From Candidatus Methanomethylophilaceae archaeon (GTDB lineage: Archaea > Thermoplasmatota > Thermoplasmata > Methanomassiliicoccales > Methanomethylophilaceae), in NCBI GenBank assembly GCA_050950505.1, contig JBMNHS010000001.1, positions 576,001 through 640,000 on the forward strand: a stretch of DNA of 64,000 nt, in the 5' to 3' direction. The position numbers and the translations under genes were made by a program. Under the pieces are notes generated by a model that worked only from the letters and a program-made list of their open reading frames with translations, made no database searches and was not told the DNA's origin. This document shows positions 38,823 through 52,424 of this stretch, one piece after another; position 1 is the stretch's first letter; every line of letters begins with the position of its first letter.

Positions 38823-38894
38823 TGCGACCGCCGGGATTCGAACCCGGGTCGGAGGCTTGGGAAGCCCCTATCCTAACCACTGGACTACGATCGC
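38823..38894 (-). tRNA. tRNA-Gly(CCC)
   Basis: Cloverleaf GCGATCG...GGGGC-TT-CCC-AA-GCCTC...TTCGAAT...CGGTCGC-A; no encoded CCA, no intron. Confidence 0.93.
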
Positions 38895-38981
38895 GCAATA
38901 GGGGGTAAACGTTCGGTTCTATTAAAGATAAGGGTGTCTTTCCGCGTTGTTTTAATACTACCGCAGTGTTGCATGTCGCAC

Positions 38982-39057
38982 GGGCCCGTGGTCTAGTGGT
39001 TATGACGTCGCCCTTACAAGGCGAAGATCGTTGGTTCAATCCCGACCGGGCCCACCA
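38982..39057 (+). tRNA. tRNA-Val(TAC)
   Basis: GGGCCCG...TCGCC-CT-TAC-AA-GGCGA...CGGGCCC-A-CCA. Confidence 0.94.
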
Positions 39058-39099
39058 CGTTGTTTCTGGACGTCTTCGAATCTTTGCATCTGTTCTAAA

Positions 39100-39120
39100 A
39101 TGGATGGATGACATCTCCAT
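39100..39120. repeat. 21-bp palindromic motif, copy 1
   Basis: ATGGATGGATGACATCTCCAT. Confidence 0.85.
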
Positions 39121-39222
39121 ATGCGGAGATTTATCGATTTTCGCTTGAATTTCGCGATTTTTATCATCAGATTTTTCAGGATATTTTCTGCGTGTACAAT
39201 ACAATTATATATTAAGTGATAG

Positions 39223-39243
39223 ATGGATGGATGATATGTCCAT
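39223..39243. repeat. 21-bp palindromic motif, copy 2
   Basis: ATGGATGGATGATATGTCCAT, 10 nt after TTATATAT. Confidence 0.85.
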
Positions 39244-39310
39244 GAATAGGGCATAGCCGGGAGCCAACTGTTTCGGTTTCTCCTCCTTCCGACTCCCGGT
39301 TAAATCTTTA
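39236..39310 (+). ncRNA. Putative small RNA 1 (ends approximate)
   Basis: TATA at 39205-39212; stem 39254-39263/39293-39302; CU-rich loop; T-rich downstream. Confidence 0.4.
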
Positions 39311-39369
39311 TCATGTTTATTTTGACGCGATTTGAACTGTCAGTTTAAAAACTTATAAATAGTCAGAAA

Positions 39370-39390
39370 ATGGATGGATGATACGTCCAT
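39370..39390. repeat. 21-bp palindromic motif, copy 3
   Basis: ATGGATGGATGATACGTCCAT, 9 nt after TTATAAAT. Confidence 0.85.
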
Positions 39391-39478
39391 AAAAGATGCC
39401 GCCGAGGATATATCGCTCACCAAATTTCTACTCTTAACCCTCGGCGGCTGTATATTGGGCGAAGGCAATGAATTTTTT
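39384..39478 (+). ncRNA. Putative small RNA 2 (ends approximate)
   Basis: TATA at 39353-39360; perfect stem GCCGCCGAGG/CCTCGGCGGC (39398-39407/39439-39448); T6 tract near 39473. Confidence 0.4.
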
Positions 39479-39522
39479 CGATGAAAATCATACAGTATTT
39501 CCAGTGTACGAACGGAATAAAA

Positions 39523-39599
39523 TGGTGGACCCGGCCGGATTTGAACCGGCGACCTTCGCCGTGTGAAGGCGACGTCATAACCAACTAGACCACGAGTCC
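39523..39599 (-). tRNA. tRNA-Val(CAC)
   Basis: GGACTCG...TCGCC-TT-CAC-AC-GGCGA...TTCAAAT...CGGGTCC-A-CCA. Confidence 0.94.
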
Positions 39600-47844: not shown

Positions 47845-47930
47845 GCGGGGGTAGCCAAGAGGACAACGGCATAGGACTTAAGATCCTAGACTTTAGGGTT
47901 TCGTGGGTTCGAATCCCATCCCCCGCACCA
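47845..47930 (+). tRNA. tRNA-Leu(TAA)
   Basis: GCGGGGG...TAGGA-CT-TAA-GA-TCCTA, long variable arm, TTCGAAT, CCCCCGC-A-CCA. Confidence 0.94.
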
Positions 47931-49473: not shown

Positions 49474-49815
49474 TCAACGCCTTACGATTCCGTAACTGTC
49501 CATCCAGTTGTCGAAAACACCGTCGGCATACGTGTTCATATGCACGGCGTCCTCTTTCTCAGGAACAATGAATCCTGCGAGAGGAAATTCATTGTCGCAG
49601 TGAGGGCATCTGATATTTGGACAATTCTGGTTCGCCTGAGGACATGCCATACAGGCGATTGCCCGGGATTGAAACAGACTGAATTCTTTATGGCACACAG
49701 GACAAAGGAACCTGCGGGCCGCCACTTTAAGATCTTTGGTAATTCCCGCGCTCCGTTCTTCCGGTGTGAGATACATCGGACCAAACGGAGACACAGGTGC
49801 TTGATTCGGATTCAT
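49474..49815 (-). CDS. Cys-rich Zn-finger hypothetical protein
   Basis: CPVC, CMAC....NC, CPHC; ATGA-coupled to GGGP synthase. Confidence 0.72.
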   Translation of the reverse strand: MNPNQAPVSPFGPMYLTPEERSAGITKDLKVAARRFLCPVCHKEFSLFQSRAIACMACPQANQNCPNIRCPHCDNEFPLAGFIVPEKEDAVHMNTYADGVFDNWMDSYGIVRR

Positions 49816-50552
49816 TTTTCTCCTCTGGACGCTTCGACGACTTCCTTCAAACGTCCGATGTCGGAACATTCTTCGATGAAAGTTCCTGTAACTATCGCAT
49901 CGGCGCCCGCTTTTCGGGCGGCTTCGGCAACTTCGGGAGTCCTGATCCCTCCTCCGACAATCAGGGGAATGGATATCGAACTCTTGACTGCGGATATCAT
50001 TTTTGCCGGAACGGGCACGTCGGCACCGCTTCCGGCTTCAAGATAAACGTAATCCATGCCGTACATTTCACAGGCAATCGCGTATCCGACAGCCTTATCG
50101 ACTTCCGAGTGTTTAATCAATTCTGCTTTACCGACCTCGCCCACCTTCATGCCGGGTTCAATAAGCAAATATCCCATCGGAATTGTTTCGATTCCCAATT
50201 TTTTGATATAAGGTGCGGCATAAGCCTGTGCTCCGAAAATCCAAGCGGGATCGGAGCTGTTTACAAGGCTCATAAAAAAAAGGGCGTCGACTTCAGGGGA
50301 AAGTTCATTGGGCCCCCCGGGAAAGTGTATGCTCGGAAGTCCGGACATCTCGCGGATGGCTTTCGCGGTTTCGCCGAGATTTTTGGAAGTGACTCCGGTG
50401 GATCCCCCAATCATGATCGCGTCGGTGCCTGCGTCCTTTGCAAGTGCTGCCAATTTTCCTGCTTCTTCGGGACTTTGTTTATCGGGGTCCAGAAGGGCCA
50501 TGTGAATGGTGCCTTGTCCGATTTTATCCTGAAGATACTGTTTGACATTCAT
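49812..50552 (-). CDS. Geranylgeranylglyceryl phosphate (GGGP) synthase
   Basis: LLDPDK, IMIGGSTG, FPG, SLVNS, YLEAGSGA, VGGGIR, IVTG. Confidence 0.94.
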   Translation of the reverse strand: MNVKQYLQDKIGQGTIHMALLDPDKQSPEEAGKLAALAKDAGTDAIMIGGSTGVTSKNLGETAKAIREMSGLPSIHFPGGPNELSPEVDALFFMSLVNSSDPAWIFGAQAYAAPYIKKLGIETIPMGYLLIEPGMKVGEVGKAELIKHSEVDKAVGYAIACEMYGMDYVYLEAGSGADVPVPAKMISAVKSSISIPLIVGGGIRTPEVAEAARKAGADAIVTGTFIEECSDIGRLKEVVEASRGEK

Positions 50553-51397
50553 TATATCACGCCGATGACAAAGGCAAGCAAAGCGAACAACATAGCGTAC
50601 TTTGTCGTTCTCTGAGCTTCATATGCACTTTTAAAAACAATAAACGCAGAATATATAAACATTGCATCTGCGACCAATATAATGCTGTAGAAGACATTCA
50701 TTGAACCATTCAATAACGGAAGTATGCTGAGACCGATTCCAATCAGGAATGCGGAACCTGCGACATAAGAGGCGTTCCGGTCTCCGATTTTCATCGGTAA
50801 CGTGGTTCTGCCCTCGTCGGATTCCCGGTCTTCTATGTCTTTGGCCAACTCTCTTCCCAAGTTTGCAAATATCGACATGGCGGCCATCGGGAGAACAGGA
50901 ATGATGTTTCCGCAGACGGCACCTCCGAGAAGGAATAACATTCCGGACAATACGGCAATCGTGATGTTTCCGATGAATCCTTTCTTTTTGAGGAAAATTT
51001 CATACGACAGCATCAGAACTGCCGCAACAATGACTATAACGGTGGAGATGTAGCTCCAGAATACGAATCCCATGTAATATGATGCAATGTGCGTCACTAT
51101 CCCGACAATCACGGCTAGTGCCATCAGGAACATACCGGAACACTATGCGGCTCTCGGGGTAATTTTCCCCTGCGGTATCGGTCTTTCTGGGTGTGCGTTG
51201 ATGTCTATGTCACGGTCCACGTAATCATTGAGGGCATTTCCGCCTGCCATGAACATGAATACGATGATACAGGAAATGGTGATACTTACCCAATAATCCA
51301 AAATATTCAGGCCGGAGGCTATGAAGGCACCTACTATGACGCCCACGATACCCATTACGTTATTTTCGAATCTGAACAATTTGAAATATCTGTTCAC
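50552..51397 (-). CDS. Digeranylgeranylglyceryl phosphate (DGGGP) synthase, UbiA family, 281 aa with in-frame TAG at codon 85 (predicted pyrrolysine)
   Basis: The two track ORFs (51143-51397, 50552-51133) are one frame: ...RPIPQGKITPRAA-TAG-CSGMFLM...; NDYVDRDID before and KDIEDRESD after the TAG; upstream of GGGP synthase. Confidence 0.88.
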
Positions 51398-51431
51398 GAA
51401 CAGCGGATATCCTGGGTATTAAAATAGTTAA

Positions 51432-52424
51432 TTACTTCCTGAACACATGGTAATATCTGGTTAACGATCCATGCACCCTCTGGGGAAGCATTCTTTCCAG
51501 AGTCATACATTCGGTGGATACTTCTTTGGGAAATATGATTCCCGCCGCTCCCCCGGGGCGGAGTATTTTTGAAACGGATTTCAAAGTTCTGGCATACATT
51601 TCGGAAAGGTTTTCTCCGCCGGTTTTTGTGGAACGGCCGTAGGGAGGATCGGTAACGACGATATCCACATCCGGCCATTTTTCGGCAATGTCCCCGATAT
51701 CCAGAATCTGACTGTCATACAGTTTCAAACCGTAGAACTGCATATTTTCCTCGGTGCCCGCAATCATATGGGGATCAAAGTCGGAAACAATCACCCTCAT
51801 TCCCATTTCCGCGGCTTCAATGGCTATCCCCCCGGTTCCGCAGAACGGGTCCAAAACAGTGGATCCCCTCGCCGCCCCGGTCAGATTTATCAGGGCCCGG
51901 GCATATTTGGGATGCAACGAAATCGGTGAAAAGAACGGACGTTCACCAACCTTTCTTTTTTCGAAAAGATCCGTGACCGGTTTGTATTCTTCGATAAAAA
52001 AGTGAATTTTATCGCTCATGAACATTCTGACGACGATATCGGGTTCGTCCAAATCCACAGGGTTGCGCTTCGAGAAGACGTTCCCTACCTTTCTTATGAT
52101 TTTCTGGGAATCTACGGAACCCATCATCCCTCTGAATCTTTTGGCACGGATTGCAAAAGTTCCTTCGGGGAGTTCTTCAGGCCTGAAGAGATCAACGTCC
52201 TCCGGAGCAAAAGATCCGAGATATTTTCCTATGCCCCGGGTCAATGCCAGTCTGTCGGAAATAAATGATAAACTGTCGGAGGGAAGTCTCAGTATGACGT
52301 ATCCGGGTCCATGGGCGACCATTTCGGCGTTTCCCATTGTTTCCGCATACGCACAGCTTACGGCTTCCTCGCGGGGCATGTCCCCTGCTTCACCCGACAG
52401 TTCAAAGAAATAAATGGGGTTCAC
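51432..52424 (-). CDS. tRNA (guanine10-N2) methyltransferase, THUMP + MTase (Trm11/TrmG10)
   Basis: FELSGE, RPFFSP.SL.P..ARA..NL, LDPFCGTGG, TDPPYG, VH.SLTR. Confidence 0.88.
   Translation of the reverse strand: MNPIYFFELSGEAGDMPREEAVSCAYAETMGNAEMVAHGPGYVILRLPSDSLSFISDRLALTRGIGKYLGSFAPEDVDLFRPEELPEGTFAIRAKRFRGMMGSVDSQKIIRKVGNVFSKRNPVDLDEPDIVVRMFMSDKIHFFIEEYKPVTDLFEKRKVGERPFFSPISLHPKYARALINLTGAARGSTVLDPFCGTGGIAIEAAEMGMRVIVSDFDPHMIAGTEENMQFYGLKLYDSQILDIGDIAEKWPDVDIVVTDPPYGRSTKTGGENLSEMYARTLKSVSKILRPGGAAGIIFPKEVSTECMTLERMLPQRVHGSLTRYYHVFRK

Follow-up and report, generated by a model that had tools for sequence, protein, structure and literature searches.

The 64,000-nucleotide stretch of DNA analysed here (the window; contig JBMNHS010000001.1 of the Candidatus Methanomethylophilaceae archaeon assembly GCA_050950505.1, positions 576,001 to 640,000) carries on its minus strand, at 50552..51397, a prenyltransferase gene of the digeranylgeranylglyceryl phosphate (DGGGP) synthase type that is interrupted by a single in-frame amber codon at position 85. 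Judging from the gene, its relatives and the decoding genes of the same genome, it is very probable that UAG85 is read by pyrrolysyl-tRNA (Pyl-tRNA), giving one full-length enzyme in which pyrrolysine (Pyl) would be a tolerated replacement of lysine. We observed the TAG codon at the identical site in a second species, purifying selection on either half of the gene and, elsewhere in the genome, the pyl genes together with a tRNA bearing a CUA anticodon. In the mechanism that we propose, the genome's own N-terminally truncated pyrrolysyl-tRNA synthetase would charge this tRNA(CUA), which would read UAG85, and translation would yield one full-length, active DGGGP synthase of 281 residues, the enzyme by which archaeal lipids receive their second ether bond. 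The amber codon would have arisen once, from a Lys AAG codon, on the stem lineage shared by two sister species of Methanomethylophilaceae-type methanogens, against a background in which TAG had nearly vanished as a terminator and Pyl-tRNA was presumably always present. It would then have been a near-neutral, missense-like change where Lys, Arg or Leu are tolerated, at the beginning of the third transmembrane helix (TM3). Because this gene is the sole one for DGGGP synthase, membrane synthesis should now need the Pyl machinery.

Coordinates given below without a prefix are those of the window, and C1 denotes contig coordinates outside it. Labels beginning with G, L and X refer to comparison genomes, to loci or contigs and to sequencing runs, respectively, G000 being the genome under study.

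The gene, its predicted product and the site of the amber codon

The gene forms a single frame on the minus strand, running from a GTG at 51397 to a TAA at 50554..50552 and comprising 281 sense codons, with the proposed pyrrolysine codon TAG85 (51143..51145) as its sole interruption. An initial annotation, made from the letters of the window, had placed the TAG at these positions and quoted its minus-strand surroundings as ...AGA GCC GCA TAG TGT TCC GGT ATG TTC...; the sequence agrees, as does a script with which the codon number was re-checked. That annotation had also proposed that the two fragments join without frameshift into a 281-residue UbiA protein, which the frame translation and full-length family matches confirmed, and that annotation with code 11 would split the gene. 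Indeed, translation with code 11 breaks it into an 84-residue open reading frame (ORF; 51143-51397) and a 193-residue ORF (50552-51133). The GTG start was found in 15 of the 16 congener loci, and the match to the remaining locus starts one codon in.

Based on motifs, fold and context, the gene product is predicted to be DGGGP synthase, an enzyme of the UbiA superfamily that converts geranylgeranylglyceryl phosphate (GGGP) and geranylgeranyl diphosphate to DGGGP. The read-through product matched the NCBIfam models PRK12884 (residues 2-280, E 4.5e-60, 203.2 bits) and PRK12882 (residues 3-280, E 4.5e-56, 190.1 bits), scored above the cut-off of Pfam UbiA (114 bits vs 34.2) and matched the solved DGGGP synthase of Methanocaldococcus jannaschii, 6m31, over residues 3-281 (E 3.8e-29). 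A review of the family (PMC9385802) defines motifs 1-3 and names residues N62, D66, D70 and Y125, K130 of the M. jannaschii enzyme. In the present protein, motif 1 is the first Asp-rich motif, N57-x3-D61-x3-D65 (51203..51229, minus strand), encoded upstream of the TAG; in the alignment with 6m31, its three named residues fall on N62, D66 and D70. Motif 2, Y132...K137 (50987..51004, minus strand), lies downstream of the TAG, and its Y132 and K137 align to the Y and K of 6m31. Also downstream is motif 3, the second Asp-rich motif D187-x2-D190-x3-D194 (50816..50839, minus strand), which aligned to the KDFEDMEGD stretch of 6m31. Motifs 1 and 3 were invariant in 31 sequences, as were Y132, E133 and K137 of motif 2. 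The two Asp-rich motifs thus stand on opposite sides of the TAG, as the initial annotation had stated.

An AlphaFold model computed from 31 homologues had a mean predicted local distance difference test score (pLDDT) of 91.6 and a predicted template modelling score (pTM) of 0.88. When this model was compared to known structures with Foldseek, the top matches were 6m31_A and 7bpu_A, with TM-scores of 0.84-0.85 at 30% identity, and other UbiA structures reached 0.64-0.71. In the model, residue 85 comes fifth in helix 81-109, near the start of TM3, and its alignment column is variable, in agreement with the initial proposal of a non-catalytic position at the beginning of a transmembrane helix. 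The M. jannaschii enzyme (6m31/7bpu; Ren et al., 2020, as described in PMC9385802) shares the common nine-helix UbiA fold and motifs 1-3, and has a Lys at the position that corresponds to TAG85. Shortly after the start of TM3, we also noticed an insertion of ~11 residues (codons ~100-112, in the 51036-51100 region) in all of the 16 genomes of the genus except G001 (L026); other genera and the M. jannaschii enzyme are without it.

Genomic context is provided by the GGGP synthase gene (49812..50552, minus strand), which was identified by TIGR01769 (241.5 bits, cut-off 161.55) and NF003198 (298.9 bits, cut-off 247). The final A of the DGGGP synthase TAA is also the first base of its ATG, a one-base overlap that places the DGGGP synthase gene directly upstream, as had been claimed from the start. 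A TAATG or TGATG junction between the two genes is kept in all 16 congener loci, and they likely form one translationally coupled operon. On the other side of the gene, the ~27 nt directly upstream of the GTG (51398-51431, minus strand; L012 1470-1500) are identical in G000 and G007, a second species of the genus, unlike the coding sequences, which are just 81.5% identical. No Shine-Dalgarno-like motif is visible within this stretch in either genome, and the more distant congeners differ upstream of the GTG except for a common AT-rich stretch further upstream. The conserved ~27 nt may represent a promoter or leader element.

Conservation of TAG85 and search for a second gene

A six-frame search of 41 related genomes recovered the gene in all of them, and an internal stop was present in two only, G000 and G007. 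The latter, which has PylS, carries the TAG at the identical codon 85. The two genes share 82% amino-acid and 81.5% nucleotide identity and are sisters with 100/99 support. Comparing them by the Nei-Gojobori method, we obtained a ratio of nonsynonymous to synonymous substitution rates (dN/dS) of 0.106 for codons 1-84 (dS 1.02) and of 0.110 for codons 86-281 (dS 0.81). With dN/dS at ~0.11 on either side of the TAG, translation and constraint have thus applied to both halves ever since the two species diverged. The homologous residue at position 85, which the initial annotation had left to an alignment, is Lys (AAA/AAG) in seven, Arg (AGG) in six and Leu (CTC) in one of the 14 TAG-less congeners, and Leu, Lys, Arg or Gln occupies the site in more distant relatives. 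AAG to TAG is the likely mutational path.

Extending the search to the order, we found matches in 248 of 261 genomes, and considered the best 150 of the 267 matches. Among the matches listed, two further genomes from other genera have TAGs in the gene, one at aligned position 169 (G094) and one at positions 35 and 99 (G200). Such unrelated positions fit drift in TAG-reading lineages and are hard to square with a gene split. The one-contig genome G021, belonging to another genus, was checked for the published TAG (see below) and has no TAG in the gene.

Independent assemblies keep the TAG, which answers the concern, voiced in the initial annotation, that the site might contain a sequencing error. 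The runs compared at TAG85 came from four studies and comprised three DNA runs (X4, X5 and X13; bioreactor, landfill and manure) and one RNA-labelled run (X20; wastewater), and all four had TAG85 in their contigs with no differing letter. Over the same runs, a script found variation at R82G, F90L, S115N, I142V, A216T and I281V and at four synonymous sites, while TAG85 stayed. A metagenome contig from the Joint Genome Institute (L095), with 99.3% nucleotide identity, has the TAG at codon 85 as well; L095 was the only close relative that the metagenome scan found, and the scan added no depth for the clade. DNA near-identical to the region 50400-51600 occurs in runs from 14 studies labelled as anaerobic digester, bioreactor, landfill, wastewater and manure metagenomes. 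A published argument tied TAG loss to gut life; the present clade, with a TAG in a presumably essential gene, is seen in engineered anaerobic systems.

The 281-codon frame contains neither a frameshift nor a second internal stop. Moreover, the genome (1,326,829 bases in two contigs, 99.63% complete) holds no second DGGGP synthase. Its one other UbiA-family gene is MenA-like and 23% identical to DGGGP synthase, an outcome in favour of the initial annotation, which had asked for a search for a second, intact gene. This gene, annotated as a MenA-like 1,4-dihydroxy-2-naphthoate prenyltransferase, is followed by a UbiE/MenG-like methyltransferase gene (C1:853662-855349; L010 1411-3098), a pair that hints at a prenylated quinone-type cofactor in the present methanogen.

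Pyrrolysine machinery and the use of TAG

The pyl genes on which the initial annotation had staked its case are present. An N-terminally short pylS lies with pylB, pylC and pylD in one cluster outside the window, at C1:4818-8681 or, with wider limits, C1:4818-8766, and the NCBIfam scores exceed the cut-offs (in brackets) for all four products: PylS, 267 bits (178); PylD, 217 (150); PylB, 436 (348); PylC, 316 (248). Within the genus, PylS was detected in 15 of 16 genomes, the remaining one being 76% complete, and PylB in all 16. Directly upstream of pylS, we spotted by reading the sequence a 71-nt gene that forms a cloverleaf with CUA centred in a 7-nt anticodon loop, and then tested it by conservation. 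Among the 16 congener loci, 13 retain this CUA tRNA with 90-100% identity, and its consensus structure in 11 sequences has 22 pairs, one of them compensatory. The window itself contains four ordinary tRNA genes (38823-39599 and 47845-47927), namely Gly-CCC, Val-TAC, Val-CAC and Leu-TAA.

Methylamine methyltransferase genes with in-frame TAGs accompany this machinery. Two of them adjoin the pyl cluster: in mtbB, a PYLIS_2 match of 83.5 bits starts at the TAG, and in mtmB a PYLIS_1 match of 39.5 bits, which is below gathering, likewise starts at the TAG. In mttB, located elsewhere in the genome, the Pfam MTTB match covers residues 37-514 and crosses TAG361. The genome encodes a single archaeal release factor 1 (aRF1). 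Judged by its gene content, with pylS/B/C/D, the CUA tRNA and TAG-bearing mtmB, mtbB and mttB, the organism is predicted to be a pyrrolysine-decoding one.

We also surveyed how TAG is used across the genome. As stops of 997 non-overlapping ORFs of at least 150 amino acids, TAG was counted 24 times, compared to 727 for TGA and 246 for TAA, and several of the 24 TAG "ends" are in fact internal TAGs. A Pfam screen was applied to 39 candidates chosen by eye from 131 TAG-containing ORFs, a selection that was not exhaustive. A Pfam domain crosses the TAG in five of the 39: a DUF4143 ATPase with two TAGs, a KAP NTPase, a Cas3 protein whose TAG53 lies inside the HD domain, a DUF3427 helicase and MttB. 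A small Fe-S protein appears to have its TAG between its two parts, a case of which we are less sure. Four further ORFs have domains solely downstream of the TAG, suggesting false N-terminal extensions, and 29 are without a Pfam match and resemble antisense shadows. The four non-methyltransferase genes with a TAG-crossing domain and the gene of the Fe-S protein lie at C1:223352-224713, 255191-257419, 898859-901660, 1138060-1140903 and 1017040-1017732. Among the screened ORFs, DGGGP synthase is the sole core housekeeping gene with a TAG. Back-up stops within 3 codons were not enriched after TAG (5/24, compared to 103/727 for TGA and 36/246 for TAA), and the length of the read-through extension did not separate TAG from the other stops.

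A special situation exists at the junction of pylB and pylC. The first in-frame stop of pylB is TAG in all 16 genomes of the genus (L116-L131) and stands 1 nt before the ATG of pylC; in G000, it is found at C1:6786-6788 (L008 6696-7835), with a GGAGG-like stretch before the stop. Read-through would add 20-30 residues and create an out-of-frame overlap with pylC of ~60-90 nt (~89 nt in G000). Since TAG seems to serve as terminator at this junction throughout the genus, termination at UAG is probably not abolished. According to these data, TAG is largely a sense codon in the present genome, perhaps not wholly. It is possible that the junction provides feedback on Pyl synthesis, with low Pyl-tRNA leading to termination and re-initiation and high Pyl-tRNA to read-through. 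We found no literature statement on a TAG at the pylB/pylC junction, the term "TAG" being absent from the 2014 paper of Borrel and colleagues in Archaea. In the text of Kivenson et al. (2024; bioRxiv 10.1101/2024.09.30.615893), Pyl in PylB is described as experimentally confirmed elsewhere.

Weighing of the readings and comparison with known systems

Several observations weigh against a Pyl residue in a full-length DGGGP synthase. Regarding the enzyme, the protein stays under the curated NCBIfam equivalog cut-offs (203.2 vs 269 bits for PRK12884 and 190.1 vs 296 for PRK12882), and the assignment as DGGGP synthase therefore rests on motifs, fold and context. Regarding the codon, its retention by two species that differ by a dS of ~0.9 carries no great statistical weight by itself, and the 262-nt contig of the RNA-labelled run X20, which spans the TAG, is no proof of transcription. 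Regarding the tRNA, ARAGORN did not call it (41 tRNAs in the whole genome, none with CUA; 0 in the pyl region), the Rfam tRNA model gave no tRNA match in the pyl region at E up to 1, and the single-sequence fold was no better than that of shuffles (z -0.10). Regarding decoding, Rfam at gathering threshold detected no PYLIS-like element after the DGGGP synthase TAG in the window, and the 110 nt from this TAG fold no better than shuffles (z 0.16). The available texts of Kivenson et al. (2024) and of Shalvarjian et al. (2025; PMC12626013) indicate that no PYLIS-like element is needed after a Pyl TAG. In addition, the latter study describes for M. acetivorans that UAG is read as stop and as Pyl, and the pylB TAG, by the criterion of Kivenson et al. 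(see below), argues against complete reassignment, such that TAG may terminate partly. That the inserted residue is Pyl, with what efficiency insertion proceeds and that the enzyme is essential are points that we infer.

Instead of being merely tolerated, the amber codon could be under selection. With GGGP synthase coupled to the same gene, TAG85 would tie membrane-lipid output to the supply of Pyl-tRNA and, together with the pylB/pylC TAG, might constitute a selected circuit that senses this supply and makes loss of the Pyl code lethal; or else selection might act on Pyl85 itself, for instance because its long, Lys-like side chain suits the cytoplasmic membrane interface where TM3 begins. We consider either version unlikely. 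If the circuit existed, this young clade of two species would capture a step of genetic-code "addiction".

A related proposal holds that dual decoding acts as a control, in which UAG85 would be read partly as stop and partly as Pyl, and full-length DGGGP synthase as well as the coupled GGGP synthase would track the supply of Pyl-tRNA, an arrangement maintained by selection. The double reading of UAG in M. acetivorans (Shalvarjian et al., 2025), the apparent termination at the pylB/pylC TAG in all 16 genomes and the presence of a single aRF1 are in its favour, and the one-base stop/start overlap would hand a lowered ribosome flux on to GGGP synthase; TAG85 is, furthermore, kept in two species and in every strain variant seen. 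However, only 2 of the 16 species of the genus have TAG85, and the other 14 do well with Lys, Arg or Leu. The TAGs that other genera have in this gene stand at unrelated positions, as drift predicts, and neither structure nor conserved context beyond the coding sequence follows the TAG. Given also that throttling a sole lipid synthase would be costly and that nothing specific speaks for it, we regard such control as quite improbable.

Purifying selection on either half would equally fit two expressed pieces, that is, a split gene in which TAG85 is a true stop and an 84-residue N-terminal fragment (TM1-2 with motif 1) is complemented by a C-terminal fragment starting at Met89 or Met92. ATG codons are available 4 and 7 codons past the TAG in G000 and 7 codons past it in G007. 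Yet the candidate restart ATGs are not preceded by a Shine-Dalgarno-like sequence in either genome, Met92 is also present in the nearest TAG-less congener and is thus not a new start signal, and the break would fall inside helix 81-109 of the model. Transferred to the other genera, this arrangement would demand three pieces in G200 and a cut at position 169 in G094. The genome, moreover, has a complete UAG-decoding system and avoids TAG as a stop, and we know of no split UbiA-family enzyme, although no search aimed at one was made. Taken together, a split gene is very improbable.

UAG85 might also be read by a near-cognate canonical tRNA (e.g. for Gln, Lys, Tyr or Trp) and not by Pyl-tRNA. Homologues tolerate Lys, Arg, Leu or Gln at position 85, each of which would probably leave the enzyme active. 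Near-cognate reading we find scarcely credible, as a dedicated, conserved CUA tRNA and its synthetase are encoded and the cognate tRNA should outcompete a near-cognate one, and as proteomics found Pyl at TAG codons in a related genus (Kivenson et al., 2024). Finally, a decaying pseudogene or a sequencing or assembly error would usually first show itself as a single in-frame stop. Both can nevertheless be dismissed for practical purposes, since four runs, each from a different study, L095 and a second species all show the same TAG, constraint is equal on both sides without frameshift or second stop, the catalytic motifs are intact and the 99.6% complete genome holds no replacement gene.

Reading of UAG85 as Pyl within a single-copy enzyme has consequences beyond this gene. 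A single copy, two species and strong purifying selection make it a clean natural example of how Pyl decoding may become indispensable for a core cell function. It also lends support to the view, found in the literature, that a lineage becomes bound to the expanded code once TAGs arrive in its essential genes. In practice, pipelines using code 11 would report such genomes without an intact DGGGP synthase and call two fragments instead, and a gene miscalled in this way can distort surveys of pathway completeness and of lipid biosynthesis in Methanomassiliicoccales.

As the initial annotation had suspected, the kind of case is already known and opens no new question. The same enzyme was flagged in 2014, when Borrel et al. 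(BMC Genomics, PMC4153887) predicted a Pyl-containing DGGGP synthase of 270 amino acids in "Ca. Methanomethylophilus alvus" (AGI85009.1; Table 7 of that paper). They reported 16 predicted non-methyltransferase Pyl proteins in Ca. M. alvus, with TAG making up 1.6% of stops, and argued that Pyl decoding may have become essential through insertions of this kind. The two cases share the enzyme, the methanogen order, the in-frame amber codon and the inference of essentiality, and TAG stops are similarly rare (1.6% vs 2.4% of long ORFs here). In contrast, the present gene belongs to another genus, represents an independent event and has its TAG at codon 85 of 281. Its contribution lies in testing conservation across two species, with dN/dS of 0.11 on either side of the TAG, a test that the text of Borrel et al. 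available to us does not report, and in demonstrating that there is no paralogue.

Kivenson et al. (2024) proposed, with proteomic support in several genera, a "Genetic Code 34" in which all TAGs of some archaea mean Pyl; in our literature search on "Code 34" with pyrrolysine, this preprint was the only source found. Their criterion combines many internal TAGs with few or no TAGs whose read-through would create an out-of-frame overlap above 60 nt. The present genome resembles Code 34 archaea in having the Pyl machinery, few TAGs and internal TAGs in many families (Cas3, helicases), and differs in the genus-wide pylB TAG, where read-through would run over pylC for more than 60 nt; we do not claim full reassignment. 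According to the same preprint, most non-methyltransferase Pyl positions are singletons in one genome or genus, which is ascribed to neutral mutation, and the present position shares this pattern. Its main text does not contain the terms lipid, geranylgeranyl, UbiA or prenyltransferase, and its supplementary tables, with 1903 predicted Pyl proteins, may list the family.

A confirmed counterpart exists in Methanosarcina, where Pyl in the tRNA-His guanylyltransferase has been verified experimentally and ascribed to neutral evolution (described in Kivenson et al., 2024, and Shalvarjian et al., 2025). As proposed here for DGGGP synthase, this Pyl is replaceable and takes no part in catalysis, in a housekeeping enzyme unrelated to methylamine metabolism; the guanylyltransferase is a soluble RNA enzyme, whereas the present case concerns a sole-copy membrane enzyme known from sequence. 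M. acetivorans, as characterized by Shalvarjian et al. (2025, PNAS), likewise has UAG within non-methyltransferase genes of a Pyl-encoding methanogen, and its pyl deletion mutants grow on methanol, which makes Pyl dispensable in that organism. Here, by contrast, the sole-copy lipid synthase would need read-through, and we predict that, unlike in Methanosarcina, loss of pyl would be lethal on any substrate, even on methanol.

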